DNA of 64,000 bases from Squalus acanthias (lineage: Eukaryota), in contig CM059430.1 in NCBI GenBank assembly GCA_030390025.1, positions 62,186,001 to 62,250,000 on the forward strand, given 5' to 3'. Each line of letters starts with the position of its first letter. The first letter of the stretch is position 1. The notes beneath the pieces are model-generated. The model was not told the DNA's origin, searched no databases, and worked only from the letters and a program-made list of their open reading frames with translations. The position numbers were made by a program, and so were the translations under genes. This document shows positions 4,112 to 60,062 of the stretch, piece by piece.

Positions 4112-4216
4112 TTATTCTGTACACTTTACCTTCCTTCTAGATTTTCCATTTTTCTCAGAACTAAGCAAAACGACGGTTGCGTACGTCAACGGGTTACCAA
4201 CAGCTTCTTGCAAGGT
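4112..4216 (-). CDS. Gene A terminal cytoplasmic exon with ITIM LTYATV
   Basis: TTTTATAG| TLQEAVGNPLTYATVVLLSSEKNGKSRRKVKCTE*; aligns with gene B terminal exon VTYATLELSGPEKAGKSKNNKMSAEY. Confidence 0.72.
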   Translation of the reverse strand, partial: TLQEAVGNPLTYATVVLLSSEKNGKSRRKVKCTE

Positions 4217-7200
4217 CTATAAAAGCAATGTGTTGTAAAGTTATCTCATTAACTTCATTAATCTTCAGAATGCTTCATAAAACAGGGTAAGATCATGATG
4301 ATATTTAAATATTCCTTAAATTAATATATGTATATTATTGGGCTTGCTACTTACCTCAAGCAATTACATTTACATAACATTCATTCCCCTATAATAAGTT
4401 ATTTTCAAGTAAAGCTATAGAAAATCCCAACTCCATAATGTTGTTAATATAGTTTAATAATCATCAAGACATTGTCCACATTATGCAGTATTTAATGCTC
4501 ATTGCATCCACAGTTTCACAGGCAACATGTTTGATACAGTGTTAGAATCATAGGGAAAGAAATTCATTTTAGCCCAGGATTGGGCGCTAACTTTGGAAAA
4601 GTTTGAGATTTAGCGCGGGGTGCTAAGGAATCTTGCTGCATTAAAAATTCAGTGTCATCGGTCAAAGAAAGGATGGAAGCGCTAAATCAAATGCTAACGG
4701 TCAAGCTCAGTGGCGTTACACTCAAAACTCTAACCAATATCAGGTGCCGTCTAATTACAATTCATCATTGCCACAGGCCATTTCCAGTTCTTAAAGGGGA
4801 GGGTCATTCATGCTGCAGAACCTCATTCTCAGCATTGTTGCCTGTGAACCTGTGTGAGCAAGCATGAGCAGGCCAAGTCCAAGGAGCTGGACGACTCAAT
4901 CAGCTGTACTCATGGCAGATCCACGCCCCAGAGAGAGAGGCCGCAGATTTTCCGACCAAGCATTGGAGGAGTTGTTGTCTGCTGTGGAGAGACAGAGTTT
5001 GGTGCACTACCCAGCAAGTGGCAGGAAGCCCTCGCCACAAGTCTTCCGTGCCATGTGGAGGGTGGTTGCCCATGAGGTGTCAGGCAGCACTGTGGTCCCC
5101 AGCACCCATACACAGTGCCGAAAGAAATTAAAGTACCTCACGCAGGTGGTAAGTGTGAGTCAATGCCTCAACAAATGCTACATACCACTGGCTGCGCCAC
5201 AGTCTGCACACAGTGGCCAAAGCACCACACCCCAGCCCTCACCCATCAACAATCTCTACCTACCAAAACTCTCACCCACATCTCACACCTTACACACAAT
5301 GACAGCTATTCAAATATGGCAGGCACATCACCCAAACATATTGCTCCACAGTCACTCACACATTTTCCTTTCTATTGCAGGCCAAGATGGCTCACAACAG
5401 GAGGGAGCAGGGTCGCACTGGCGGGGGACAAGTCGACACACTGTCTGCGCTAGAAAATAGATTGCTGGAGATTATTGGGTGCTAGGTAGTGGGCGTCATG
5501 GCAACTGGCGACGTTGACCCCTTGGGGACTACAGCGGTATGTTCATCCATACTCCTACTTCTCACATCCCTCTTCCCCCTCACCCCACAAGCCTTTTGCA
5601 CTTTGCAGCTAGTCATGCTGTATGCATTCATTTCGCCCTTCCTGCCCCCTCCCCTCACCGTAACCTGACTCTTGTGTTTTTATGCTTTCAGATGATGAGC
5701 AAGCACCTGAGCAGCCTGTCCCTGAGGACACCATAGAGAGCGGGGCGGGTGATGAGGAAGAGGAAGAACACCCTGTGTCACTGCATGTCTCATCCGCAGG
5801 CACCAGCTCAGATACTGGCACTACGCATTCTTTAGCGGCCAGCATAGTAGCGGGATGTGTACAGGTTGAGGCACCGGGGATGAGCAGGCTGCAGCAAGGC
5901 CAGGGCGAAAGGGTAGCTCGTGGTTCAGCTCCCCAGAAGGCGAATTCTGCTTCACAGGACTCAGATGAGGACCTCGATGGGGAGGCGCTAAGAAGAAGGG
6001 TGTTGGGCATGCACACAGAGATGATAGGTGCAATGGCAAGTGTGCCTGAGAGCCTCTTGGCAATGATAGAGAACGTGAAGGAGTCTGCTTACAAAACTGC
6101 ACAAAGATCTGCACACACCATGGAGCCCATCATTTCTAGTCTGCAAAGGATGATGGACTCCCAGATTGACCGTGGCGACCCAGACCTGATGCCATATGTG
6201 CTGGGTGATCTGGCAGCTTCCACTGCAGCACAGGCAGAAGCGACGCTACGTGTTAGTGCTGTAATGCAGTCTGTGCTTGGTGGCATCCAATGAAAGTGTC
6301 AGCTGTGTCTCAGTGGTTAGCACTATTGCCTCTGAGTCAGAAGGTTATGGGTTCAAGTCCCACTCCAGGAACTTGAGCACAAAAATCTAAGCTGACACAC
6401 CAGTGGAGTACTGAGGGAGTGCTGCACTGTCAGAGGTGTCATCTTTCAGATGAGACATTAAAACGAGTCCCCCCCCCCCTCTGCTCTCTCAGGTGGACGT
6501 GAAAGATCCCATGGCACTATTTCGAAAAAGAGCAGGCCAATTGTCCCTGGTGTCCTGGCCAATATTTATCCCTTAATCATCATATATAAAACAGATTATC
6601 TTTTCAATATCACGTTGCTGTTCGTGGAAACTTGCTGTGCACAAATTGACTGCCGCATTTCTTATATTACAACAGTGACTACACTTCAAAAAGTACTTAA
6701 TTGGCAAAAAAGGGCTTTGAGATATCCAGTGGTCGTGAAAGTCACTGTAGAAATGCAAGTCTTTTTTTCTTTCTCAGACTGCTATCATTCAGTCTCAGCT
6801 TGATGCCACGCAAGCTCAGAATGCTGCCAACGTGGCTGGGTCTACCACCATCGACCGGAGCTTCCACGGTGTCTCAGCAGGCCAGAAATCTGCTCCAAAA
6901 GATTGCTGAGGATGCTGAGGTGTTGCCCAAGAGGAGTGGCAGTAGGTCAGTGGAGCCGGAACCTTCTGTCCTCTCTCAGGATGACAGCATTCCTGCTCCC
7001 ACCACTGCCACTCGCCATTGCCCTTGTCGCTTCCTGTCATCCCACCAGCCGAGACTGCTGCCGCCCGTGCATGCGCTGAAAACCAGCACTTGCGATCTGT
7101 CAAGAATTCTCTTGACAGATCATGCGCCTGCCCGGGAAAAGTGCTTCTGCGGGTGGAGTGTTGCGCTTTGTGCACAACTTCTGCCAACTGAAATACCACA

Positions 7201-10200
7201 GAATTCTTATGCCTGGTAAAAGCAGACATAAGGCCTGGTTTTTCCAGCTTACGAGTGCTGAAAAATAGAAAATTTAAATTTGGTTACTGATTTATAAATT
7301 AAAAATCCTCTTCACAAAGGTAAGTTTATTTTTAAACCCGTAAAAACATTGGCCCAAAAATTCGGCCCTACCAGCCTGAGTACACAGTGTGTACTCACCC
7401 GTATTCATTCCCGAAGTGCCGGTTTCCTGCATGCACTGCAGATGCGCGTGAAACCGCAACTTCCGGTATGGTGAAGCGGGCATTTCCTAGGTGAACCGCA
7501 TGCGCGCTAAAGGCTGCGCGCATGCAGCGCACTTAGATTTTTTTCAGGTTTCTACGCGAGGGTAAGTATTGAAGATTCTACGCTAATAAAAAGGAGGCGT
7601 AAGACACCTTTTGAACAAGGTAAGTGGTTAATTAAGAATAATTTTAATTTTTTTTTCAACAGTTTTATCTTTTTTAGATACTTTAAAGAAAGGTAAGTTT
7701 ATTTTTATACCTTTTAAAAAGTATTTGAATTTTTTCAAAAATTTAAATTTTTGTTTACAGTGGTTAATTTATTTAACTATAGTTATTTTATAGATGTGAA
7801 GATTTTTTAATTTATTTTAAGTTTAGCTGTTCTTTTGGGGCCGATTTCAATTCACAGATTTGACAGGTCTCCTGTCAAATCTATGAATGAAAGATGGTCT
7901 GCTGCCATTGGCTCTACATGGCCCATGTGATCCCAGGGGTCGCATCGCACTAACTGCGCCCCTGGAACACGCAAGCACAGCGCGCCGACTCTTGGGAGAG
8001 GCCCAGGACCCGAAGTTCCTGTGGGCCCAAAACACAACGGCAGGCATAGTGGGTAAGAGTGCATCGATTCTTACCCCCGCGGCAAGACGGCCACGCGAAT
8101 TTCTAGGCCATTTTTTTCTCAAAAAAAATAATTTAAAAAATAATTAATTAAATGGAATTTTAATTAATTTTAATTATGTAGTTATTTTTAAATTTATTTA
8201 ATGTTTTAGTGAGTTTTAAAATGTGATAGCCATTCGTACTTTTGACAGTTCTATCCCTACAGACCAGTCACAAGTATGAAGGGGGATTCGCTTCTTTGAT
8301 TGATTCGCCTGGCCCGCATGATCCTAGGGGCAATTGGGAACCGCATGCACCCCTGGGATACGTGGGTCTCTGTGCATTTCAACCAGCAGGTAGATTCATA
8401 GATTTTATTCTGATTGGAGGCATCCGCCCGGTGAAAGCCTCCATTCAGTAATTCAGGGCCAATATTTTGTTGTAAATATGTGTTCACTGATTATTAATAA
8501 ATGTATTAATTCAGTTTGGATTCTTTTGTGGTGTCTCTCATTTCAGGTTTGCGCTGTGATATGGCCTGCAACAGAAATGCAATGTTGGGGATGTGCTGAG
8601 CAACGGGGATCTGGTGTTAAATTCATTTGCATTCTGATGAAGTGCTCACAGACCACCCTTCCAGAAGGCCGATTGAGTGGCTGCCTGCTCCGTCACTCCT
8701 GTTCCTCCTCCTCCTCGGCTTCCTCTTCCTCCTCGTCCTCGTCTTACTCCTCCTGAGGTGGCAGAGCTGAGCCCTCATGATGGACAATTTGTGGAGCATG
8801 CAGCAGACCACCACAAAATGGAACACCCACTCAACCGAGTTCAGGAGGGTTCCTCCCAAGCAGTCAAGGCTGCAGAACTGTTCCTTGAGCCCCCCGATGG
8901 TCTGCTCGGTTATGTTCCTGGTGGCAGCATCGCTCTCATTATGTGAGTGCTGAGCAGGAGTGTTGGGGTTGTGGAGCGGGAGTATGAGCCCAGTGGAGTG
9001 CAGATAGCCCTTGTCTCAGACCAGCCAGCCGTGAGCTTGATGTGGTAGCTGGAAGAATGTTGGTGCAGCTTGAAGGCACTGTGGCTGCTGCCAGGATAGC
9101 AGGCATTGACATTGAGGATTTACTGTCTGTGGTCATGCACCAACTGCACATTAAGTGAGTGGTAGCCTTTGCGGTTACAGAAGATTTTAGGATTGTTATG
9201 CGGTGTCTGCAAAGCCACATGGGTGCTGTCAATGGTGCCCTGCACCATGGGGAATCCCACTATCCTGATGAAGCCACATGCACGCTCTTCCTGCTTCTCT
9301 CTGGTGATGGGAAAATAAATGTAGTCCCTTCTCCTTCTGTAGAGCGCCCCTGTGATGTCCCGGATGCAGCGATGGATGGCAATATGCGAGATGTTAGTTT
9401 TGTCTCCTGTTGCAGACTGGAAGTGCCCACAGGTGATGAAATTGAGGGTGACGGTGAATTTGACGGCCATTGAGAGAGCCGTGGTCACCCTGATCTGAGG
9501 CTGGAGCTCTGTGGTGGCAGAGTTCTGTGACCTCCTCCTTGGGGAAGTGGAGCCTTCCAATACACTGCTCCTCACTTAATTGGAGCTAGGAGAAGTGATC
9601 TTGGAATACCTTCAGAGGGATAGGCCTCCTGTTTTGAACCCTGATTGCCCTCCTCTTCCCTCTGGCCACATGTTCCAAACTTTCTCGCTGCCTCCGCTCC
9701 CTCCACCATAGATCCTGGAGGGCGAGGTCGACTGCGAGTGCAGTCCCATTAATGTAACCAAGTGTAGCAGTTTTATTTTTTTAAGAATCAATGTAGCTAC
9801 ATTTTAGTTGCCACAACATTCTTTATACTAAAGAACCTTGAAATCACAGAATAAGACTGTTGCACGATGTGAAACTGTCAATAACGCACTTAAACTCCAC
9901 TAACCTACAGCTGTGACTCATTACTGATGATTGCTTTAAATAATGTTCTTGGAGCCAGCTTCCTGGTGTTTCCCAGCAGCTCTCCCAGCCGCTGTATCCT
10001 CCTGGTGCTAAGGTAGGTGGCGGCAATCAATTTTGCAGATTGGGAAGTCAGTGAGCGTTGCACACTCACTGGCATCACAATCCATCTAGCGTTGATGTTC
10101 CCGGCAATAACTTTTAGTTGCGGCGCTGCGGGGGAGGGGGGTGGTTTTGTGTGTGGTGCAGGAGTTACCTGGCCCCAGTAATAATGCTCTAGCACCCCAT

Positions 10201-13200
10201 TAGCGCCATCTGCTGCCGCTAACGGGAGGCGCCAAGGTACTGAATTCCCCCCAAAATCTCTGAAAAACTACATCCGCCTCAACGACGCAGCCTCAACCCA
10301 CTTTGAGTACCCAAAGCCTAGGGCATCAATTTAAATCTCTCATTTACATGATGCATAACCAAAACACAAACAAATTAATTTGGTGCTCGCCCTTTGTGGC
10401 CACTCACTATTGTGCCATTGGCTCCAGCAAATCTTCGTGGCCAACCTTTTAAAATTTCCTTGCAGGGCTCCAAGCTGGGTTTCCAACTGTAGTGGGCAAC
10501 TTGCCCTGGATGGGTGAGCAGAAAATAATTGCTGGTGCAGAACTGTGGCTAATTGAAACATTACACCAATAATCTCAGAAGAAAGGTCATCGATGTTTGA
10601 GAATAAAACACCCAAAGGTGGGAATTTTGTTTAAGGTTAACTTTTCAGATTTTTGCCGTGGTGAAATGACCGGTCCTTGGGCGCATCGGTCAGGAAAATA
10701 GGGACAATGACCAAATACACAGGGCGTGATCCCCATTACTTTGCGCCGGGATCTAGGGACAGCAGCAGCAGCTGCACGACCTATTCACGTAAATTACGTG
10801 GGAGAGGGAGCTCCAGGTCTCCCTCCCATTTTCAAAACGAAGAATTTTCAATATCTAGATGCAGTGATGTCACATGAAGATTGTGTTAGATTTGCGCCGT
10901 GTCTGCCTGCTCTCCTCCGGCTAGATGGCCGGAAAAGGCGTAGCATCAAAACAAACAGAACGCTAAAAGTGAAGTTGTATACTTTTTCCAAGTTGCTAAA
11001 CCATTCTCCGGGCTTGGGAGCCTGCTGCTGTCAGCTGCTTTCAGACTCCTACGGCCCGGGGCCTCACTCAAATTTCCTCCCTTTCTAACCGGGCACTCGA
11101 CCCTGCCACGGAGTCGGCATACACTGGGAGCGTCCCCTGACCATGGTATTGTAACTGACAAAAAAGTACGCTACTCCTGGACCTGAGCAGACTGAGTGCA
11201 CTTAGTGCCTAGACAATGGATTTCGGTACGAATTCTGCGCCAACTTTCACTTGGGAGTACTGCATGTTAACAGTTTTTGATGACCCAGTCTGATGTAAGT
11301 TAACTGAAAAAGTGCACAAACGAGTTATCCTAGTCTGAAATAGATTTGAAATGATCTCAGCTGAACAGAAAATTATCACATTACACTTAAAACATCAATC
11401 AGATAAATGTTTTAAACTTACAGACTTGTCACAATTGATTTCTTCATCTTTTCTCTCCCTGCCTAGTAAAACACAAAATTCAAAGCTTCATTGTGAATGA
11501 TGCACGATATGATTAAGCAAGTATGGCGGATGCCAATTTATAGTGAGACAAAGTCGAAAACATTCATAACATTCCGCAACCTAGATTTTCGCCGTGGGAT
11601 GCTAGTTGACCAATAATGATGCGAAATTGCTTTCTACAAAAAATAAACACTCTGACACTTCTGCCTAAAAAAAGGGAGAAGGATTTCAGATATGTTCATC
11701 CCCCAGTATATTTAAACATGTGGAGATCAGAGAGACGATTTTCGGATCGGAGTGGGGTGGTAGCGCAGCGGGACTACAATCCATCTTCATGTTCATACCA
11801 TTCTAAGATAAGTGCTGCATTTCAGGATCACAGACCGATTAAAAAAATCAACAACCAACCTGAGCTCTATTCCCACGTCAACAAAACTTTTGATCAGTAA
11901 ATTATAGCGTGGAACAATCCTCTCTGCATGCTGACTAGCATTTTCTGTTCGTTGTAATTTGTATTTAAATTGAACAATCTGGTGATAACTTACCTTTACA
12001 ATGACTGAATCTGAACGACATTCCAATGATAATCACCAGCACCAGAAACGTCAATGCAAAGCCTGCGCATCCAAAGATCCGTAAATAAGGCGAGGGCGAA
12101 GTACTGTCACTACCTGCGAGATAAAAATAACATTCACATATGGAGCTGTGTATTGTTGAGGATTCCGTCAGCAATCAGAGCCCTAAATGGAACCTGATAT
12201 TTGAACAATTGTTTACAGCAGTTGAGCATGGGTACTCAAATTGTTAACTGATGGAAGTTGTTGTATCGCTATTTAAAACTGAGCGAAACGGGTGGGAGAC
12301 ATTATCGCCCGGCGGAAAACGGGCTAATAGAACAGAAAATCGCGCGAGGAGTGCAAAACCGGCTGCTGAATTCGTTATCGGCCATTTTGCGCTATCGCTG
12401 AAGACCAATTTTATCCCCTGTTTATTTGATGTTTCTGGAAGGCTGACCGATCTTTAGTTTCTGTATCTGTTTTTCACTCTGCGGGACAAGAGTATTTTCT
12501 ATTGGTATGAATAAAACTTAATTTTTAGTTTTAAGTAGTTAATTAATTCAATTAACAATTGCCCTCGTCACTATGTGGGATTATGTCGTAACTTTTCTTG
12601 CGAAGGTTTCCTCTGTTAGGTATGTCTCGGCATGTTGCATTTCTCTGCAGAATTATGTTTGTGAAATTTCTCCTGCCGCCCCTTTGTTTCATCAACGCTC
12701 CATTCATTCCAAACCAAATGACTGCCATTATTTGAAGAAAAGAATAAATATGCAGCTAGAATTCGGAACCCAACATAACTTTGTTTTTTATGTTTCCCAT
12801 TTCCCTAGCAATATATGTGTCATAGAGCGATCAGCGGAATTCCTCCTCATTTGACACTTCAGAGTAAAGAATTTCAACATTCACGCCACCGACTTGTTAT
12901 TGGACAAAATAAGCTACTTAGCGTTTCGACCATTTGGCGCTGAATCAGCGGTTATTTGATTTGAGATGGGCAGTTTGAACGAAGTGTCAATATTAATGAA
13001 TAAACATGGCCTGATGTGAAAAGAAGAATTTTGGACAGAACTATTTTCCGTGTTACAATATTTACTGAATTGAAGGGGTTCACGTGCATTGGGAGAACTT
13101 TTTAACTTCAGTAGGCGTTTAAAAACAAATGGAAAGGAAAATCTGGCGGTGTGTATAACGGGGCCGATCCTTTTCCGCCAGTTTTACGCCCCACCAAAGT

Positions 13201-16200
13201 TGAAATTTCCGCCCAATTGCAGCCATTCCGGAGGAGGTTGTAGGTCAAAAACTGGAAATCTAAGTGCTCTGGAAATCAACATTAAATTGTAATATTTTTA
13301 ATATTGATGGGATTTTACAAAAATATCATATGGTGGATAATTTCCACTGTTCACTATTTGTAGCTAAATTTCTTACACGTTTCCCTTTCAATAATTAAAA
13401 AAGGAAATCTTCCCCTGTTTGGCAAAGAACCACTGACAGATTAATGGCAGACGTTTGTTTTGTAAGCAAAGTGACATCTTACCTGAGTTAGAATTAGGAA
13501 CCAAGTAAATTGCCATGGCTGGAAACTGGAGGGTCACGTGAGACACCAGACAGACGTAAACAGTCCCTCCCTGGACAGGCTGTGTCTCTTCAAAATAGCT
13601 GGAAGCTTCATACATCCCGGCTCTGCTGAGCTGTTTAATAGTATGTATTCCGGTTTCAATGCGTCGATTATTTTTGTACCAAGTGACAGCCAGTCCCACT
13701 GGGTAAAATGAAGCCATTTCACACACGAGAGCCAAAGAACCGAATACATTACTTTCAGATGGGTTGGAAACAATCCTCAGGGGAGTTGGAGGAGCTGGTG
13801 ACAGGTCGAAGAAGAAAGTTAAATATCTGGTCTATTCTGGAATTTCTGAAGTCGAATAGATAGGACTTCAGATCGGCTACAACCGTATCAGAGAAGTATA
13901 AATCTGTATGTTTATGGTATAGCGAAAGCATTACATTTTACTTATTGTAGATTATAGAATCATAGACAGGTACAGCACAGATGGAGGCTACTCAGCCCAT
14001 CGTGCTTGAGCCGTCTCTTTGGAAGTGCTGTCCAAGTAATCCCACTCCACAGCTCTTTCGTCATAACCCTGCAAATGTTCCCCTTCACGTATTTAACCAA
14101 TTCCCTTTTGAAGGTTGCTATTGAATCTGTTTCGTCCACCCTTTCAGGCAGTCCATTCCAGATCATAACAACTCGCTTCGTATTTTTCCCCTCATGTTGC
14201 TTCTGGTTCTTTTGCCCATTATGCCCAAAATTTATATAGCTCCCTCTATAAAACCTCGAAACCTAACTTTCCAGTGTTATCTCGTTATTGAGAACAATTT
14301 GAACGCGTTGGTGAAGCAGCTCCCTCGTCTCTGTAGCGAATAGAAGATGCGTTTCTGAAGGCCTTCTATGCCTACTATTCCCGACCCAAAGAAACCTTCA
14401 GAATGCACTCACACATTGTCGCTACATACAGTGAGCAGCGGAAGCGCAACCCCACACCCATCGCCCATCTTGTTATGGAGGTAACCCGAGAAATCAACAG
14501 CGGCGGCATAGCATCTTAGACTGATTTTTTCACAATTAGCCCCGTCCACGAAATGAATTATATTTCCAGCCACGAGGATTTTTACTCGTATTACTTGTAT
14601 GGTTTACAATAAACGTACAACATCACAATCAGGGATAATAACTAAAGGCGAACCTTCCACTTCACGGGTTACATCGGCGTGAGAGAAACATTTGTACCCG
14701 GAAAATAAGAACTGTGGCGAATGGACTTTGCACAACTCAGGGACACATTCACGACATTCTTTACCGGTGACATATTCGCTTTTGAAGGGGTTTGAGGAGA
14801 AAAAAATGATTTGGTTCGTCGACCAGAGGCTGAGAGAAGCTATTGACTGAAGAATAGGAAATACAGCCAGGCTTCCGATACTCTGATCTCTCAGTCCCAG
14901 AGAGCACAGTGTCAGCCGTGGCTCAGTGGTAGCACTTTTACCTCCTAGTAAGAAATTCCTGAGTTCTAAGCTCTACTCCAGATACTTCGGGGCATAATCA
15001 AGGCTGACCCTTCAGTGCATTACGGAGGAAGTGCTGCACTGTCGAAGTGATGTTTGGATAAGATATTAAACCTCGGCCCCTCTGCCCTCTCAGGTGAACA
15101 TAAAATATCCCACGGCACTATTCAAACAAGTGCATGGAAATTGTGCCGATGTCCTGGCCAATATTTAACCCTCAAGCACCATCATTAACGATCGAGTCAT
15201 TATCCCATTGTCGGACATTGCTATGTGCACATTGGCTGCCACGTTTTCCTACATTTAAACAGTGACTACATTTCAAAAGCATTTCAACTACATTGTAAAA
15301 CGCTTTGGGACACCAATTGCGCTACATACGTACAAGTTATTTCTTATTTATCGCAGCAGGAGCGGGGACACAATATTTAAAAATAATCACGTGGATTAAC
15401 TTCTGTGTACATGTTATAATTGAAATTAGACTTTATACTCGATAACAACACGGTTAGTGTGATAGTTTAGATGGTCATCTAACTGCAGCTTTAAACAGTT
15501 CAGGATATATTCAAATAAGGCTAATCAAAATGTTATTTATACTGAAAACCTTTCAAGTTATCACAATTTGTACTCGCACCTGTATGGCATGACAACGCTT
15601 CCTGCGCAAGCTTACAAGCATGAAATAACAGAACTAATTATTAATAAAACGATCAAGATGGTTTAAAAAAAGCACACAGATCTACATGTGTTGTATTTTA
15701 TAACTAGAATTTCTATAATTGAAGCATTTGATTTCTAATGTAAATTTTAAAGCAACACGAGGAAGAGTGGGGCATGCCATACTTCATTATTTATTTTGAA
15801 TAACTGTGAGACTATACCGCCGATACGCTCTTTACAATGTTCTTACCACTGACGACAAGCTTTGATCCGCTTCCATTTGCTTTCCTATTTCCCCGATGTG
15901 TCACTCCGCAGTGATAAACTCCAGAGTCCTGGAAACTGATATTCCGGAGCTGGAAGGAGGCTCTTCCTTTCTCAGTAAGAAATCGTTTCCTGGTGTCTGA
16001 GCCTAGTTTTATCAATTCATTTTCGCCAAGTTTCCACCAATAAATATTCACAACTGAATCGCCTTTCAAAACAGGAAATGTGCAATTGAAGACAATGTTT
16101 GTACCAGCGATCGAATTGGCATTTTCAGGGGCTTGGGTTACTTCAAACGGAGTATCGGCAGCAACTATTAAGAAAATGAACATTTATTACAGTTATAAAA

Positions 16201-28850: not shown

Positions 28851-29968
28851 AATACTTGGTACTGTGTCTATGCTCCTGCTTGATAATGCAGACAGTCAAC
28901 CAACCATGATAGTTGCACGAAGCAAGAGGCAACTAATTCACTTCTTCTTGTATGGTTTTTAGATTCGGAGTCAAACACTTAGTCACTGGAACTGCTGAGC
29001 TACCATTCTTCTAGTATCAGTTGCACAATGTTCTAATCCTGTAATTTAGTTGATCTACTTCCCAAATACATCTCAATTTAACATTTTAAACCACGAGTTA
29101 TCCTTTCCTGATGCGGGAACCACTCTAAAAGGAGTGAGTGTTTGCAGTTCAATTCCCTTCTTCATTTAGGCTTGCTAAAGTCGAACCTCTATTGCATGTT
29201 AAGGGTGTAAATCAAACAGCCTGCTTATATCTCCCTTGACGAGGCCTCGCAACATTTTAAATACCTAGATCGTGGTTCATTCAATCTTTTCTACAACGAA
29301 AGAAATTGGCAGCCGTCACAAAGTTCAGGCAAGAGTGTCTCTTGTACCGTCAATCGTAAGTTGAGTTCAGAGAGTTTATGGATGAAGCCAGGGATTGAAA
29401 CTTCCTGTCCTCCACTCCAAGAGCATGGTCTGGAATAGGAGTTGACTACAGTGACACAAACCCTGAAGTCAGCACCCATTTTCTCAGTTTTGTTCCCAGA
29501 AGTAATTATCATATGTGTTATCGTTGAATTTTAAACGGGAGATGTAAGACATCCATTTGTATACATGGTGATAAATATTTACAGCATGTCAGTTAGCCTA
29601 TCATTCTAATTGAAATAGTATAGGATCGTCATATATTAAATAATACCGATTTAACTTGAAAATTATTTTTATTACAAGCATTTATATTTCTGTCTAATAA
29701 TCTCCAAATAATGAAACAATTAGCATATCTGCATTATATACTATGATACTAGAATGTATTACATCTTGGGGATTGGAGAACACGGATATACCTGCAGATG
29801 GAGATAATTAACACTTTCACTGCTTGGGCGGTAAACTACCCCGTCAGATCTTCGGCCCTTTATAGAAACCGCCAGGTTTTATTCTCCATTGAAATCAGTG
29901 AGTTGATATGGCTGCGGGATGAATCAATATACAACAATAAACTGATTAATGTGTCCAAGATTGTATCT

Positions 29969-30142
29969 CTATTTCGTTCTTGCATCTGTGTAGACGGCCT
30001 CTGTTACTCTTCTTGGAGTTTTCGTCTGTATCTCGGCATATTCTGCGCTCATTTTATTATTTTTAGATTTTCCCGCTTTCTCGGGGCCAGACAATTCTAG
30101 AGTCGCGTACGTCACCTTGTCCCGGGCTGTCCCTTGTTTTAT
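29969..30142 (-). CDS. Gene B terminal exon (ITIM VTYATL and AEYAEI)
   Basis: TTTTCAG| IKQGTARDKVTYATLELSGPEKAGKSKNNKMSAEYAEIQTKTPRRVTEAVYTDARTK*. Confidence 0.85.
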   Translation of the reverse strand: MKQGTARDKVTYATLELSGPEKAGKSKNNKMSAEYAEIQTKTPRRVTEAVYTDARTK

Positions 30143-33100
30143 CTGAAAAGCCAATGTTTGGAAATATTGTTGATTGATCGTTTTACCAGTTTCTGGTTTG
30201 CTGCTCAAGGCAGCCGGCAGAATAACACACAAAACGTTTTAGATACAACACACGGTGAAAGTCAGAACAGCCCCAAATACTCCGCTATTAGATTTATTTT
30301 AGTCCTCCACATGTGATCTGCGTTTCTCTTATCTGCTTCTCAGCCCCACCTGAGCATACGCTGAGCTCTCCTCTTCACGTTTAAATCTTGGAGTTTTCCT
30401 GGCTTTGCTCAAGTCTACTGCAGCATAAGCCACGATCTCGTCATTGGCTCCCTGCATGGGCCAGAAAGAAAATGTATTGTTATGTGGCTAGTTCATTGCC
30501 CTCACAAATTTACAAACTGCTGACCAAACAATAAACAGAATGACCTGGGCTACAAATAAAATGCAGAAACCACAGCTAATATATTTAAAGATGTGCGAAT
30601 ATTAAGGCCGGTAAATAGTGTGCCCATTGTAACTTACATTTCAACCTGTCGATTTTCAGTACAATACAGTGATACAGATATGTTTAAACAAGAGGTAGTT
30701 TCAGCATCATATCAGATTCCAGAAGCAACGTTTAGATGGATGTACACATAACGAATACCTAGTTATATGTTGAATGAAGCTACGGATTTCATTTTTCTCT
30801 TTCGTTAATCACTTACATCTGCATCGCAACAAGTGTGAAAACACGATTTGAATGACCCATCAAAGAGGGACAAATACTTTTGTGAAATAGATTTTGATGA
30901 AATATCCCCATCATAAGAATATTTATTTACACTGGAACACTATTCCTGGATAAATTATATGAACCTACCAGCTCTTCATGAGGGTCTAGTATTGTTATAC
31001 TTTCCTGTTTACCTGCAAATTAATGGAATTTAATTACATTCAATGATGAAAATGTTTATTCAGTTTCCATGTTTGCACTTTCAAAAGTATTTTGCAGTCA
31101 ATGAACCGCTTAACATGACTTTAGATATATAGGTTGACAGAGCAATGGCAGCTCTAATTCAACGCAGTGAAGAGTAGAGCGCTACAGCTAGGAAGAAAAA
31201 ATAAACTACACATGTACTTCATGGATTGTATTCAAATAGCTAAAGATGGAACTGAAAGAGACCTAGGGGTTTAGTAGACTGGACGCTAAACTTGACCATC
31301 CAATGCATAGCAGCAATGGACAAAGCCAATAGGCTGATGAACGACATAGGCAAAGCAGTAGAATGAAAGTCAGAGGAGGGCACGATCAAACTGTATAGTG
31401 CTCTTGTCACACGGACCATTGAATAATGTGACCAATTTAGGTCACTAATGGTCAAGCGCTAGTGCCAGTGCAGAGATGAGCCACCAGGCTGGTTTCCCAG
31501 GGTCAGGGGACTGAGCTATGAGGACACTCTGAATAAACGTGATCTTTTAGACTGGAAAGGAGGCGTCTCAGCTATGATCTTATGGAAACATATAAGATAG
31601 CTAAGCGTATAGAAAATGTTAATCCTCAGTTTTATTTCATTGATTCTCAGGACGTTGGTGTCGCTGACAAGGGCAGCATTTATTGTCCATCTTTAGTTGC
31701 CCTTAATTACAGACAACCGAACGGTATACAAGATCACTTCAGAGGGCAGTTAAGTGTTAACCATATTGGTATGTAACTGATGTGACATATAGGCCAGATC
31801 GGGTAAAAATGGCAAGTTTCCGTTTCTAAAGGACATTAATGAATTCCTTAGCATTTTATGACAACCCGACAGCCTCATAGTCACTTGTCTTTTACTGATA
31901 CCAGCTTTTTATTTCCACAATTTTTAAACTGCATCTAAACTCTCACAATGCCTTGGATGGGTTTACCCACCTTCTCGGGATTACAAAACCAGACCTTTGG
32001 ATTACCAGTTCAGTAACATAAGCACTACACTACCGTACCCGTTTAGTATCAGATATTTAACTGCGAGGCCTGAACTCGGGGACACTGGTAAAAAAACTAG
32101 CAAATGAGAATTGTAGGCATGATGCCAGGAAATTCTTCTTTACAGAGTGATCAACATGAGGAACAAAGTTCCACATACAGAAAATGAGGCAAACGACCTG
32201 AGATCCCTTAGCAAACATCTGGATTCTACACTGGGGAAACAGTCCATCTGTCGTGATGGACCAAATGACCTTCCTCATCAGCAGTTATTTTCTGATATTA
32301 CATTTTCCGGGCTGTTTTGAAAATCCGAATCAATGTAGCCATCTACAGTCGTGTACACCGACTCGCAACTGGACACTGACCCCACTTTACCCAAACTCGT
32401 CACAGGCCCCCAAACTGATGAAACAATCGATCAAATTGCACTTATCATCTGCCACAAAGTGGAAATTTTCGTTGTTAAAATCCAGATGATCAGATCCTTT
32501 AGAGTCTCATTCTGTGATAATTCTTTCATTATAAGATGCTGAATTCAGCGCAATTTGCAACATGCGATTTCTGTTCCTGTAGCATCAGATATCATAACCT
32601 GAACCTTTAAGTAATAATCGCGCTGCTCTCCTGCAGTGCCGGCCATGACGCGCTCTCTATCCCTCTAAAGATTTGTATTCAATCAAACGATTAACGCAAT
32701 ACTTACCTTTATTCTTCAAACTGCATCTCGCCCCAATGATGATCATGAGCACCAGAAGCGCCAATCCACCCAGCGCACATCCAAGACCCCAGATATAACG
32801 ATATTTACCATCAGATTCTGGAAGAGTAAAAGGATACATACTGATTTCTAATTTGTGGCTGTCGTTACCTGAAAAGATACATCGGGATAATTTGTTGGCT
32901 AAACTGCTGCTCATATTTACAGCAACTACGCAGTATAGCAAGAGAAGATGTTCATTTTGAAAATAACCTTACTTTAGCTTTTTAGATTTGATATCAAAAG
33001 AAACTTCTCACAAAAGAGTGATACACGGCCGGAATAATCTGCGAGGGAGGCAATTAGTTTAGGGTGCTCTGAGTGTTAGTATTTAGGAGAGTTAGAATTC

Positions 33101-35800
33101 CAGATGAATAATTTTCGATGGACAGAAAGGCTTGTTCTTGTACTTGACTTTTATTTTGCTCTCAAACGATTGTTTGATGAAATCGCGGCAATTCAGTGAC
33201 ACGTGACTCGCTATTGCCGAAGGAAAAGGCGGATTGTATCAATTGGGTTTAAATGCAAATTCAATTCTCTGCAGTGTATTTACTGAAGTAAAATTGTCAC
33301 TGAATAAGAAAGGAAACTCGCACAAGGTTATTTGTTAATTACAGAAAAATAGGTGTTAATAAACCGACATCTTGCAACCAATTGCAGTGCAAACACATCT
33401 GGGTCACAGTCTGAATGAAATGTATGAAACGGGTTCCCGCTCCAAACCTCTTTATCACGGAGCGGTTGTGTTACGGCCAGTCCACATGCTAATTCCTGAC
33501 CAATTCTGAGTGAATTGCCCAACAGCGGCCGGAATCATGAGCCGCACTGGGAGACATGGGAGACCAGAAAAAAGAACTGCCGCTTCTAGTCCTGAAACTC
33601 ATGGAAGGAAAGCAGATAATGGGAAAGAATAAAATCAATCTAACAAGAGTACAAATTTGAATGTTTAATAATAAGCAAGAGATGTAAAATAATTGGATGG
33701 AAGAGCTACACCACCTGCTCATTTTTTTTTACAATTTGGAAGCTACGGAGTTTTAAAACGCAGTTTCTGGATGGAGGGCGATAATAAGACTCTCGGTTTT
33801 ACAACAGGTTCGGGTCAATAATTTTTTACATTGAAACATTGATTTTCTCTTTGCTTTGATATTTGCTGGGAGCTTTTTTCTATCTTCATGGTTATCAATA
33901 TAAAAAACTCTATGAAATAGCCTTTCAGAATATAACAGTAGTTGACCTCAGTTCTTGGCCTTTTGGCCTCGTACCTGGGTCGGAATTAGCAACTGTGTGG
34001 ATGGCAATGACGGGAGTACCGAGGGAGACATGAGATACCAAACAAATGTAAACAGCCCCATTCGGCACAGGCTGCGTCTCTTCCAAAGAGCTGGAAACTT
34101 CATACAGTCCCACAGTGTTCAGCCGTTTAGTGGAATTTATCCCAGTTGCGGTTTCGACGCCATTTTTATACCAAACGAGGGTTAATTCGCCCGGGTAAAA
34201 CTCCGCCGTTTCACACACAAGAGTCAGAGACGCAGCTGAATTGCTCTCGGGTGTCCTGGAGACAATCTTCACTGGAGTTGGGGCAGCTGCGGAACAGACC
34301 ATGGGGAAAATCAGGTTACTGGGGAGATAGTAAACATAAGATAAGTTTGTTAGTAACCCTAGGTCTGTCTGTCTGTCTCCCCAAGAGAGAAATTAATAAT
34401 CTGTCCATTACCGATAATAAAGCAGGGCCGAAGAGGATATCGGACAGCTCACACAGCCGAAGCATGAGAACGGCTGAGCGAAATTACTTTCCCTTCAACC
34501 TCAAAAGGCTGCAACAACAGTCTCTGGGCAATGTTTTATTTATTGGAGGCGAAAGAGCTGCAAAATTGCTGTTCGTGGTCCACTTTGTTGAGTGAATCCA
34601 TTGATCAGCAGTTAAATTAAACTGATCTGAAGTCCGCCACGCGAATCAGCCTGTCAGTATGTGAGCATTAATTTCATAAGAGAGACTGTTAAACCTCATT
34701 TACAGCGATAGGGACAAACAGAATATCTAAAATGGAGCAAGTAACGTGTATATGACGGGAGTGGGGCATTAACAGAAAAGATTTTCAGTCAGTTATCAAT
34801 ATATTTGGAATTTGGTCCCCAACTTCCATCATCAGAATTCCGATGTAAACATACATATTGAGATGAATCGAGTAACATGTTACTTGCGACAGGTCATCGA
34901 CCTGAAGCGTTGACTCTGCTCCTTTCTCCACAGCTGCTGCCTGAACTGCTGAGTATTTCCAACATTTTCTGTTTATATTTCAGATTTCCAACATCCGCAG
35001 CATTTTGACTGAGTAACATGTTAATTATTCTGGTTATTTTGATGGCATTTTACACAACTAAGCAAATGATATTGTGCCGTATAATTAGCAGTTGTGTGCA
35101 GAGTTTCAGTGTAAATGTCTTAATATAATTGTTTTATAATATCAAAGACGGTGCAATTAAACAATGACAAAACATCAATCTCGCTACATTTGATACAATT
35201 GGACGTTCCCGCTCACTCCGGTCACTTACCGCACACAGTTAGATGTGATCCTGTTCCATTTCCAATAATTCTTCCCTGACGGATCACTGCGCAGTGATAG
35301 ATTCCAGAGTCCTGGAAAGTCACGTTCAGTAACTCAAAGAAACCGCCTCCTTTTTTTTTCAGAACAAATCGTTTTCTGTTATCGGCTCCTGTTTGCAGAT
35401 ATTCATTCTCATCATGTTTCCACCAGCGCACTTCTACCCCTGAATTGTCATGAGAAAGGGGGATTACGCAATGGAAGGTTATGTCTGTCCCCCTTAATTT
35501 AATTACTTGTTCGGGAGTTTGAGACACGCTGATCGAAGTATGCGCAGCAGCTGTTGAAAATATATTCAAAGTTTGGTTAATTGTATTCTATGCGGAATAA
35601 AACACTTTAAAATGCATTTCTACAAGGAAATGAAAATGAGAAAGAAGAATACAGACGGACTAACTGTACCCATTCATTTTGTGTGGTATCTGCTTCAGAT
35701 TTTTTACCGCGACGGTTGGGATAGAGAATAAACAGTTACCTGTGTAAATGATCCCCGGGAGAAACAGGAAAAGGGAAGGAAACATCACAGTCGACAACAT
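29969..35800 (-). CDS. Gene B: SIRPalpha-like inhibitory VJ-C1 Ig-superfamily receptor (7 exons, 374 aa)
   Basis: Exons 35800-35740, 35550-35230, 34286-33975, 32817-32707, 31012-30969, 30451-30350, 30142-29969; all GT-AG and phase-compatible, sum 1125 nt with no internal stop. Tail motifs VAYAAV, SAYAQI, VTYATL, AEYAEI (plus AVYTDA). Confidence 0.9.
30350..30451 (-). CDS. Gene B second cytoplasmic exon (ITIM VAYAAV and start of SAYAQ/I)
   Basis: CAG| GANDEIVAYAAVDLSKARKTPRFKREEESSAYAQ |GTGGG; 102 nt. Confidence 0.82.
30969..31012 (-). CDS. Gene B first cytoplasmic exon
   Basis: TTTGCAG| GKQESITILDPHEEL |GTAGG; 44 nt, phase 1-0, needed to link the TM exon to the phase-0 ITIM exon. Confidence 0.75.
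32707..32817 (-). CDS. Gene B transmembrane exon (uncharged TM core)
   Basis: ESDGKYRYIWGLGCALGGLALLVLMIIIGARCSLKNK; CAG| and |GTAAGT; 111 nt. Confidence 0.9.
33975..34286 (-). CDS. Gene B Ig C1-set exon
   Basis: AAPTPVKIVS...LVCETAEFYPGELTLVWYKNG...VYICLVSHVSL; 312 nt, same length as the gene A C1 exon. Confidence 0.92.
34883..35010. mobile_element. Short dispersed repeat (Penelope-type) with 13-bp target duplication; hairpin-arranged relative at ~48870-49060
   Basis: GAGTAACATGTTA at 34870-34882 and 35011-35023; core GGTCATCGACCTGAA...GCTGCCTG...GCTGAG. Confidence 0.55.
35230..35550 (-). CDS. Gene B Ig V-set exon (VJ type)
   Basis: SVSQTP...TFHC...RWWK...DSGIYHCAV...IGNGTGSHLTVC; 321 nt, phase 1-1. 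Confidence 0.92.
35740..35800 (-). CDS. Gene B leader exon
   Basis: MLSTVMFPSLFLFLPGIIYT then phase-1 donor G|GTAACT. Confidence 0.8.
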
Positions 35801-56620: not shown

Positions 56621-58432
56621 TATGGAGGTAATTTAGCAGAAATAAACTTAAGAAGAAACACTCAACAGCTTCCCACCAATCAGCACCTCCATCTTTAGAT
56701 ATGCTATGAACTACTTAGCAGAAATATACTGAAAACAGAACAACAACACTTACCACAAATACTTTCCCTATACTCACCTCTCAGCTCCCTTGTGCCAGCG
56801 ACACCTTTTGAATTCTGACGTCACTCTTTCGTTTTGTCGATGCCAACTGTTTCCCTCGCAGGTAGTCCGCTGGCTCAGTCTCTCTCTGCATCGCGCTGCC
56901 TTTATCCACGGTCGCGGACTCCGTTCCTGCCGCAGGTCTGCTCGCTCAGACTCGATACTATGAAAGAATACAAAAGCAAATTACAAAGGTCCGTCTAAAT
57001 GGCCAAGAATGGAGAGTTACTATTAGAGAAGCACGGACTTTTTTAACTGGAGCTGAAAAAAATGATGAGTGACCTAATAGAGGTTTTCAACATTATGAGG
57101 CGTTATGATAAGCAAATAGTGATAGAATATTTCCAATGACCAGTAGACGGTTCCGCGTGAGCATAACTTTAACACAATCGCAAAAAATGAAGAGGTAAAA
57201 TACTCTTTGCACAGAGGCTGGTTAGAATATGAGCTGTGGACGTTCTCTGCCACAAAACATTGTTGCATCACTGCCCAGGAATTCTTTTAGAAGTGAATTA
57301 GTTGTTTGAAAAAGAGGAATATTAAAGTTATTAGAAATCTAAAAGGAAAATGGAACTCCCTAATTATTTCATATGGGGAGAAAAAAGGTACAGATTTTAG
57401 AGACGCGTGATCTGAATCTGTGCTGTAACATTCTAGGATTCCAAATTGCTTGTTAATGCACACAGACATCAAACCAGAACAGTTAGGCCGAGCAAGAGGC
57501 AGCGGTTTCACTTCGTCTTGTATTATCTTAAAATTTGGAGCTAAAGGCTTAGTCACTGGAACTGTTGGACTGCCTTTCTTCCAGTAACTAGCCGTAAATG
57601 TTCTATCCCTATCATTCAAGTGATCTACTTCCTCAATACTCACAGTTTAATCGTGGAAACGGCTAGTCAATCTTCAGCTAACGAGGCAGCCACGCTACAA
57701 TAGATAAATCGCTGTAGTTCTATTCTCTTTCTTGAGGCAACCTCTAGTTGCATGTCAAACCTTACAATCTGCTAATATCGACATTTTCCACGGCTTTGAA
57801 CTTTTTAAATCCTGCATCACTGTTAATTCGGACCTTTCCCCAATAAAAATGCATTCAGCTCTGTAGGGATTTTCTTACAAGTTCAGTACTATATCCCGGA
57901 TTCATTATTGTTGCTCGTCTGGGAACTCTCTAGAAGCACTATCCTTTTGAAGACAAAATCTAATGAGAACAATCGAGGCTATTCCTTTGGTAGCAACTTG
58001 AAATTGTCTGGGCGCATCGCTTCAAATAGGAATGGATAGTCATACAGAATTTAGAGAAAGGCATCTCATCCTCCATCATCTGCACGCTGTGTTCAGAGGG
58101 TTTATGGATTGGTCCAAATCAGGAGAATCGCCTGCACTTGAAGACAGGACACAGTAACGGAACACACAAATCAAAACACACAAAGCTTTACTCGGCAAGA
58201 AAATCACGGATGGTTGATTGATAAGAGAGATCTAATAATCTTTTTTTTATTGAATTGATGTATGAGGATAACTCGATACAGCAAAACAATTAGCGTATCA
58301 TTGCTGATATTTGTCATATATTAAGTACTACAGATTGATCAAAAATGTAAAAGCAAGGTTCATTTTATTACAAGTACTTAAATGAAAATTTCTCAAATAT
58401 TTAAGCAATAACAAACAATTACACCTACAATC

Positions 58433-58837
58433 TATGATATAGTACTGAAATTAGTTACTCTGTTTTCATTTGTTATTTTTGGGTTTCCTCGATTTTTTGG
58501 AGCCTGACAATCCTAGCGTCACGTAAGTCACTTGTTTGTTCGGTAAATCCGTGTATGGAAGGAATGTTTATGGGTCGGTTTGCCAGTTTCTTTTCTGCTG
58601 CTCATCAGAATAACACACAAAAAACCTGAGCTACAATACACGACTAGAGTCAGCCAACCATATATTCTCCATTATCGCATGAATGTTGGTGCTACTGTGG
58701 TGATCTGTGTCTGTCTCATCCACTTCTCAGCCCCGCCTGAGGGTACGCGGCACTCTCCTGTTCAAGTTTAAGACTTGAAGTTGACATAATGCTGCTCAAA
58801 TCTATTGCAGCATATTAGCGATTTGAGCCTTTGCTTC
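58433..58837 (-). pseudogene. Decayed ITIM exons of gene C
   Basis: 58837-58737 is a 101-nt copy of the 102-nt gene B exon, with a 1-nt deletion before the first Tyr and donor GT>GC. The terminal exon remnant keeps VTYVTL (58531-58514) but lacks its AG acceptor and the later Tyr motifs. Confidence 0.8.
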
Positions 58838-59233
58838 CTATATGGACCAGAAACAAAATATGTTGTTATGTGTCTGTTTCATTGCTTTCACCAGTTCACG
58901 TGCTGCTGCTGAAACATTGAACAGAACGACCTGGGCTGGAGATAAAGCACAAAAACCATAATGAATATCTTAAAATAAGTACGAATATAAAGGCCGATGA
59001 TTACTGCAATCACTGTAACTAATATTTAATCATGTCGATGTTCTCTCTGCAACACAGTTACAGACATCTTTAATGTGCAGCAGTTCTAGAATACGAATGC
59101 ATTAAGATTTTTACCCCCCCAAAAAACAAAGATCATTGATTCTATAAACAATTATTACCGAGGTACAGTTTCAACGAAACTGACAGTTTTCTCTTGTGCT
59201 CTTTAAACATTTATAACAGCACCCATCGGGAGC

Positions 59234-59337
59234 GGGGGAGAAATTGGTCTTCGGCGGGAGCGAAATGGGCGAAAGCGAATCAGCAACCCGTTGCACACCG
59301 CGCCCGATTTTGTTTTCGGAAGACCAATTTCATCCCC
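59234..59337. mobile_element. ~100-bp MITE-like element (related copy ~12290-12418)
   Basis: TIR GGGGAGAAATTGGTCTTC ... GAAGACCAATTTCATCCCC; nearly the same right end at ~12400-12418. Confidence 0.55.
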
Positions 59338-59461
59338 GAGCTCCCGGTGTTAAATATTTTTCTAAACACGATTTGAATGAGCCATTACGCGGGACAAATA
59401 CTGTTAGAAAATAGACAAACTGTTCTGACATGATTATGATATAATCTCTCCATTACAGCAA

Positions 59462-59550
59462 TCATTCTTCGTATTTCAACCCTTTGCGGAGATGCATGAA
59501 TGAACATTTCGGATCTTCACTGCGTAGCGGTCCCTTTACACCTTTTTCAC
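59462..59550 (-). CDS. Gene C first cytoplasmic exon, donor lost, predicted read-through short tail
   Basis: Intact acceptor TTCACAG|. At the position of the gene B donor (GTAGGTTCA) the sequence is AAATGTTCA. Read-through gives GEKGVKGPLRSEDPKCSFMHLRKGLKYEE*. Confidence 0.6.
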
Positions 59551-59948
59551 CTGTGAATTAATGACGTTTACACATAATGAATGATAGAAGTATTTACTCA
59601 GTTTCAATATCAGCGTTTTCAAAGACATTTCTAGAGAAGGTGCAAAGCCGAACAGGATTCTCAATTTCAGATTTTGCAGACAGTGTTTGAAATCGTAGCC
59701 CCTGTAGCGAGCAGCAATGGTCTTCAGCCATTTCGGGCCGGAGGCTCACCGCTTCACTCGAACTAATTGAGGACTCCCAACGGACTGGTTTGGAAAGTGA
59801 TTGTGTGTCTGAGCAAATTTCTTTTACCACTTGCTGCAAAGTGGAAATTTCAGTTGCATATATACAAATAATCAGATCCATTTTTAATTTGATTGTTGGA
59901 GTATTTCTGCGTGTTGTGCTAAAATCAAAGGCTTACAGCAGATCTTAC

Positions 59949-60062
59949 CTTTATTAATCTGAAATTGGCAGTGCGTCCCAATGATGATCAGGAGAACTAG
60001 AAACGCCAATCCACCCACCGCATATCTAAAATACGAGTAGTACGGGGACATACCGACATTAT
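59949..60062 (-). CDS. Gene C transmembrane exon with Arg (5' exons presumably beyond the window end)
   Basis: TTGCAG| DNVGMSPYYSYFRYAVGGLAFLVLLIIIGTHCQFQINK |GTAAG; open 114-nt exon homologous to the gene B TM exon; flanking intron 60240-60630 resembles 33020-33440. Confidence 0.85.

Follow-up and report, generated by a model that had tools for sequence, protein, structure and literature searches.

The described receptor that served as the main comparison for the gene analysed here is SIRPalpha. According to PMC9319280, SIRPalpha and its family combine a VJ-type V domain and C1-set domains with an uncharged membrane helix; the tail of SIRPalpha carries two modules of an ITIM plus a second tyrosine, and short-tailed siblings lie in the same cluster. 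A joined VJ-type V architecture is listed for CD79, NITR, SIRP, CD8, NKp30 and PRARP in PMC11599192, and because other families have it, its presence in the gene studied here is not specific to SIRP. NKp30, PRARP and UrIg are named as non-rearranging VJ genes in passages of PMC10751288 that leave SIRP unmentioned; UrIg is a non-rearranging shark antibody-like gene in which a germline-joined VJ is followed by C1.

Other shark genes also entered the comparison. On C5 and C10 there are germline VJ-C1 genes that were taken to be PRARP-like or VJC1, and a cluster on C26 was presumed to be shark NKp30 (NCR3)-like, a name given by sequence likeness.

The gene in question, gene B, is encoded on the minus strand of a 64,000-nucleotide stretch of Squalus acanthias DNA (CM059430.1, positions 62,186,001 to 62,250,000, on C6), here called the window. 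Seven exons, joined in silico, gave a single open frame of 374 amino acids:

35800 to 35740, minus strand: leader exon, 61 nt, from the ATG to a phase-1 GT donor, hydrophobic
35550 to 35230, minus strand: V-set exon of the germline-joined VJ type (Pfam V-set 8.2e-11), ending in a GxGTGSxLxV strand
34286 to 33975, minus strand: single C1-set exon (Pfam C1-set 3e-12)
32817 to 32707, minus strand: transmembrane exon, helix without a charged residue
31012 to 30969, minus strand: short cytoplasmic exon 1, 44 nt, phase 1 to 0, AG/GT ends
30451 to 30350, minus strand: tail module 1 exon, with the ITIM VAYAAV and the second tyrosine in SAYAQ; phase-0 donor at its end
30142 to 29969, minus strand: last exon, tail module 2, with VTYATL, AEYAEI, a fifth tyrosine in AVYTDA, and the stop

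The V exon was classed as a germline-joined VJ because of the J-like strand at its end, and gene B thereby has the non-rearranging VJ-C1-TM architecture of PRARP/VJC1. Between V and the transmembrane exon there is a single C1 exon, as had been predicted. The transmembrane exon and the three tail exons all have AG/GT ends, and the short cytoplasmic exon has a counterpart segment in the database homologues P0010 and P0012. Candidate polyadenylation signals (AATAAA/ATTAAA) follow the stop at 29883 and 29673. An extra in-frame acceptor at 32868, 51 nt upstream of the transmembrane exon (window 32818-32868), could add 17 stalk residues. A J-like FGAGT stretch in the intron between C1 and the transmembrane exon was rejected as coding, as it has neither an open frame leading into it nor splice support.

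Contigs built from three sequencing runs guessed to be RNA were compared with the exon model. The leader-V junction (35740/35550) is joined by an X2 contig that shows 8 differences in 120 nt and belongs to a close relative, and the V-C1 junction by a paralogue's contig with about 91% likeness in C1; since such contigs differ from gene B by 7-12%, they come from paralogues. Among the contigs listed for these three runs, none spanned 30350/30142 or any other junction of the tail. Short X1 contigs correspond to gene B at 29971-30135, at 32703-32879 and within an intron at 33363-33560; these fit DNA or unspliced RNA and were therefore not counted as expression evidence for gene B.

Tyrosine modules of the tail

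The spliced tail contains VAYAAV (tyrosine codon at 30427), SAYAQI (30358), VTYATL (30109) and AEYAEI (30040), spaced 23-14-23, so that the motifs of the original prediction are all in place. Three of the four match [SILVT]xYxx[ILV]; AEYAEI falls outside this consensus because of the alanine at −2. When the tail was shuffled 100000 times, at least three ITIM/ITSM matches to the consensus arose in 45 shuffles and at least four Yxx[ILV] in 114, which puts the motifs beyond chance. The proposed four-tyrosine layout is real as far as these motifs go, but it overlooked a fifth tail tyrosine, in AVYTDA (29992), 16 residues after the fourth. Of the 27 other last-exon matches, 20 entered the paralogue comparison, and two more were fetched separately; 18 of the 20 have the fifth tyrosine, although in one case it follows an in-frame stop.

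It had been argued that the second motif forms only across the 30350/30142 junction and that this supports the exon model. Read-through into the intron also yields an ITIM, SAYAQV, followed by a stop, since every phase-0 GT donor codes for valine; the junction argument is therefore empty. Moreover, the residue at pY+3 of the second motif is threonine rather than isoleucine, hence not an ITIM, in 18 of the 19 paralogues that have both exons. The splice model is better backed by the conservation of its sites and by database models: the donor at 30350 is GT in 18/19 paralogues, the acceptor at 30142 is in register in 18/19, and the gene models of homologues P0010 and P0029 have the same tail-exon join. 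The first tyrosine is kept in 19/19 paralogues and the second in 17/19.

A duplicated module in the tail, also part of the original prediction, was borne out. The two tail exons of gene B align with a score that was equalled or exceeded in 0/1000 DNA shuffles and 1/2000 protein shuffles. In homologues P0054 and P0078, the position of the fifth tyrosine starts a complete third module, and the number of modules varies among relatives, from one in P0009 and two in P0007 to three in P0054 and P0078 and four in P0042. On account of this third module and the varying counts, the tail is regarded as an array of exon-sized modules of about 37 residues, of which gene B has two and a stub, AVYTDA likely being what is left of a third.

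A clustered receptor family

The C1 exon of gene B gave 122 matches in the genome (150 of 522 candidates scored), 119 of them on C6, where they form three clusters at 61.1-62.8, 67.4-68.2 and 72.4-76.9 Mb. The last tail exon gave 28 matches (67 scored), all on C6, and the exon of tail module 1 gave 15. Among 48 homologues, 45 bear the name of a shark, ray or chimaera (two names are incomplete and one homologue is unnamed), and the further family representatives are chondrichthyan in 10/10 cases. In databases they carry automatic names as different as SIRP-like, tapasin-like, NCR3LG1-like, CD276 and MHC class II-like. A limited literature search gave no published description of this shark VJ-C1 cluster family, and one may exist in specialist papers; in the elephant shark paper (PMC3964593), SIRP, CD47 and ITIM are absent from the main text and one supplement.

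The paralogues are clustered and similar in their ectodomains, some with ITIM tails and others with short tails and a charged membrane residue, as in clusters of paired ITIM/activating IgSF receptors. Short tails with an arginine close to where the membrane helix begins occur in P0034, P0035 and P0041. In P0104, P0107 and P0164, V is joined to the transmembrane segment and a full tail with no C1 between; these are probably isoforms or models in which C1 was skipped.

The closest copies of gene B are both broken. One is an inverted, 97%-identical copy 5.5 Mb away (C6:67756001-67766000, L006), with a stop at the second tail tyrosine; the other, 92% identical (C6:61890001-61900000, L007), has a split V exon. 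The upstream neighbour of gene B (window 58388-60062 and C6:62250001-62260000) has V and C1 intact just beyond the window and a transmembrane exon at about 60062-59949, and its two tail exons are decayed (a stop, a GC donor, a lost acceptor), leaving it short-tailed or tail-dead. The downstream neighbour (window 4115-16183) has V (16183-15815), C1 (13831-13391) and transmembrane (near 12110) exons that are all open; its tail search returned a single decayed last exon near 4216. With the closest copies of gene B broken and neighbouring tails decayed, the family turns over fast.

Such surroundings raise the question whether gene B itself is a recent duplicate whose frame is still open but which is no longer made. 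The state of the two closest copies and the decayed tail exons in both window neighbours would fit this, but all seven exons of gene B are open with canonical splice sites, and dN/dS of the tail exon was 0.49-0.85, below 1 in 11/11 comparisons (of pairs that are not independent), pointing to mild purifying selection. A dead copy is accordingly judged very unlikely.

Decayed orphan tail exons lie on C2 near 53.506 Mb (L004:6155-6256), with no V or C1 near them in the 20 kb read. On C6, two complete tail-exon pairs separated by about 3.3 kb occur at each of three sites, near 62.50, 62.64 and 62.76 Mb, and the cluster edge at C6:62.79-62.85 Mb (L077, L081, L082) contains proviral-looking open frames.

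Relationship to SIRP and other VJ-type receptors

Searches that set out from the family led to SIRP. A profile of four sequences, run against the PDB, returned human SIRPalpha and SIRPgamma as the top two (SIRPalpha with 46.4 bits over the end of V and C1), a 35-sequence profile placed human SIRPalpha third, and an Atlas feature search with homologue P0007 ranked SIRPalpha clusters first and second (0.97). These rankings speak for a reading in which the family is the chondrichthyan sister of the tetrapod SIRPs, a V-C1 proto-SIRP that was relocated and expanded with its tail inherited, gene B being a co-orthologue and not a one-to-one counterpart. Weighed with the evidence below, this descent is considered unlikely.

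The SIRP references used throughout, in searches and trees, were lizards and platypus. The reverse searches ended elsewhere. None of the 66 places matched by the lizard SIRP V domain lay on C6 (150 of 474 candidates scored), so that the reciprocal best match proposed as a check was not obtained with tetrapod SIRP; the best matches were NKp30-like and Ig light-chain VJ exons. In a strict first look, the whole lizard SIRP matched 72 places; three of these were on C6, and the highest of the three ranked 45th. Read by their sequence, other lizard SIRP matches were IgNAR, IgL, UrIg-like, B7H6-like, TCR beta and VJ-C1 exons. On the SIRP V profile, NKp30-like and Ig light-chain VJ exons reached 38-50 bits against 13 bits for V in the inverted, 97%-identical duplicate of gene B; V domains of the gene B type thus fall far below NKp30-like and IgL V domains.

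The locus differs as well. Human SIRPs are located between NSFL1C and PDYN. In the shark, NSFL1C is found at 31.0 Mb and PDYN at 33.2 Mb of C11; gene B is on C6, in a cluster bordered by GINS3, and its distance from GINS3 is about 1.2 Mb. Near NSFL1C and PDYN, at the two ends of this 2.2 Mb interval of C11, 42 ten-kb loci contained no Ig or SIRP-like exon. HELZ2 adjoins PDYN on C11. Two genome searches gave no better SIRP candidate than the family of gene B. These two negative results count in favour of a relocated proto-SIRP, the SIRP role in the shark genome being vacant for want of a better candidate. The genome of Squalus acanthias may be without a true SIRP. For CD47, a Pfam membrane-domain search of the genome returned no match anywhere, controls included. 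The sole V-set_CD47 match was rejected as shark CD47, generic Ig_3/Ig_2 models fitting it far better.

Trees were calculated for V (53 rows), C1 (54 rows) and V+C1 (35 rows), after 8 V and 11 C1 near-duplicates had been dropped. In the V tree, the family formed a single clade (93/75), whose sister was the other shark VJ-C1 genes in 446/500 bootstrap trees (67/84). The original prediction named a firm grouping of V and C1 away from SIRP as its own refutation. For V this was weakly the case, with an AU p of 0.029 for a grouping of the family with SIRP; such a grouping was left unrejected by C1 (0.106 and 0.37) and V+C1 (0.322). In the C1 tree, the family fell into a weakly supported group (80/83), and the first C1 of SIRP was among the members of that group. 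In the V+C1 bootstrap, SIRP was the direct sister of the family in at most 2/500 trees, which tells against the proto-SIRP reading.

The VJ-C1 genes of C5 and C10, with the nearest V domains in the tree, share the VJ-C1-TM-ITIM layout of gene B; they differ in the few copies seen, a longer FG loop and their position on other chromosomes. The NKp30-like cluster on C26 has a VJ-type V and ITIM-tailed members in common with the family but differs in having a separate V clade, a single tail module and no C1 exon seen. UrIg, a strong PDB match (9dmx) in the family profile searches, has several C1 domains and forms a separate clade in the V and V+C1 trees.

The V-C1 layout is also that of B7-H6 (NCR3LG1), and gene B might be a ligand or adhesion molecule of this kind, signalling in reverse, rather than a leukocyte receptor. 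Some homologues are automatically named NCR3LG1-like, and B7-H6 was the top row in a fold search with the P0004 model (pLDDT 85.4; Z 15.8, rmsd 4.0, 193 residues aligned). That Z score was tied, however, with those of Rst, Neph1, PD-L2 and others. SIRP did not appear among the 50 rows listed, which carries no weight against it. The V domain of gene B has the J-like strand that is missing from the B7H6-like V domains examined, and the latter group with butyrophilin at 99/93, separately from the family; the label 'B7H6-like' was assigned to these tree rows by reading their sequence. A B7-H6-like ligand or adhesion molecule is on this evidence highly improbable.

The tail was the feature on which the likeness to SIRPalpha had been founded. 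Lizard SIRPalpha tails read VTYADL/SEYASI/VTYADL/SEYASV with a spacing of 25-17-26, similar to that of gene B. On the family tail profile they scored 36-45 bits, and a platypus tail 13. The lizard scores were higher than those of 300/300 shuffles in which the hexamers were fixed, so that the likeness, which favours the proto-SIRP reading, extends beyond the hexamers; with positions −4 to +7 fixed, 5-11 of 300 shuffles exceeded them. The motifs, together with the residues directly beside them, account for most of this score, and little is left over. Against a profile of the family module, the NKp30-like shark module (two genes) was the best outside match with 31-33 bits, above all 12 SIRP modules at 10-29 bits, and this again counts against descent from a proto-SIRP. 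The modules of the C5 and C10 VJ-C1 genes gave 4-11 bits.

Four tyrosine motifs are not diagnostic of SIRP either, because a VJ-C1 gene on C5 has the same layout. Its V, C1, transmembrane segment and tail follow in order within 12 kb (L075 and L148, C5:138.575-138.588 Mb), and the tail contains four ITIM/ITSM-like motifs (LHYVSV, TEYAVL, LHYSTV and ATYVSL) as two pairs in a single final exon. Near this gene there are several tandem V-C1 copies. The four tyrosines of SIRPalpha probably share one last exon, a point that does not enter the argument here; SIRPalpha knockouts are described as missing exons 7 and 8. The ITIM module may be an old exon that various VJ receptors have in common, or it may have arisen under a common SH2 preference; the sequences fit both.

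Gene B differs from SIRPalpha further in having one C1 domain instead of two and the extra fifth tyrosine, and in most of its paralogues the second motif is YAQT. The tail linkers of the family are basic and nearly free of proline (3% against 18% in SIRPalpha). More than 100 paralogues at another locus stand against five human SIRP genes.

Predicted signalling and significance

An intact VJ-C1-TM gene in a chondrichthyan cluster of more than 100 genes, gene B probably encodes an inhibitory receptor of a paired family, apart from the SIRP locus. An early SIRPalpha-type self-recognition inhibitory receptor had been proposed. The part of this proposal that stands is inhibitory signalling of the SIRPalpha kind, with which the PDB and Atlas rankings and the tail agree; the reverse search, synteny and the V tree speak against an early SIRPalpha/CD47 receptor as such. 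From sequence comparison, gene B is probably not the shark's SIRPalpha and would likely act as a generic immune brake.

In the mechanism envisaged, the receptor would cluster once its V domain binds a ligand, and Src-family kinases would phosphorylate the tail, as is described for SIRPalpha in PMC9319280. By the same analogy (PMC9319280), SHP-1 or SHP-2 would bind with its two SH2 domains to the ITIM and the second tyrosine of each module, which are separated by 23 residues, and activation would be damped; recruitment of SHP-1/SHP-2 by gene B is predicted from the motif consensus. Short-tailed siblings, some with an arginine at the start of the helix, may serve as activating or decoy partners. 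The likeness to SIRPalpha would then likely go back to an ITIM module, either generic or shared since ancient times, whose copies arose within the family through duplication of single exons. Because the paralogues are numerous and their turnover is high, the ligand of gene B is more likely a surface molecule that varies, of self or microbial origin, than one conserved CD47-like protein.

Taken alone, gene B is an ordinary ITIM receptor, whose SIRPalpha-like tail does not identify it; the interest lies in the family, a large cluster of non-rearranging VJ-C1 receptors of sharks, rays and chimaera with inconsistent names in the databases. A far-reaching extension, which we regard as doubtful, is that these more than 100 TCR-shaped germline VJ-C1 paired receptors are the chondrichthyan equivalent of KIR, LILR and SIRP for self-recognition and share an ancestral VJ-C1-ITIM gene with tetrapod SIRP. 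A SIRP-type checkpoint would then predate the split between sharks and bony fish, and gene B would be one inhibitory sensor among many. The family is also a warning against taking the label 'SIRPalpha-like' in shark genomes for a sign of orthology. If the family does sense self on shark myeloid or NK-like cells, it would bear on the origin of inhibitory checkpoints and of antigen-receptor-like VJ-C1 genes.
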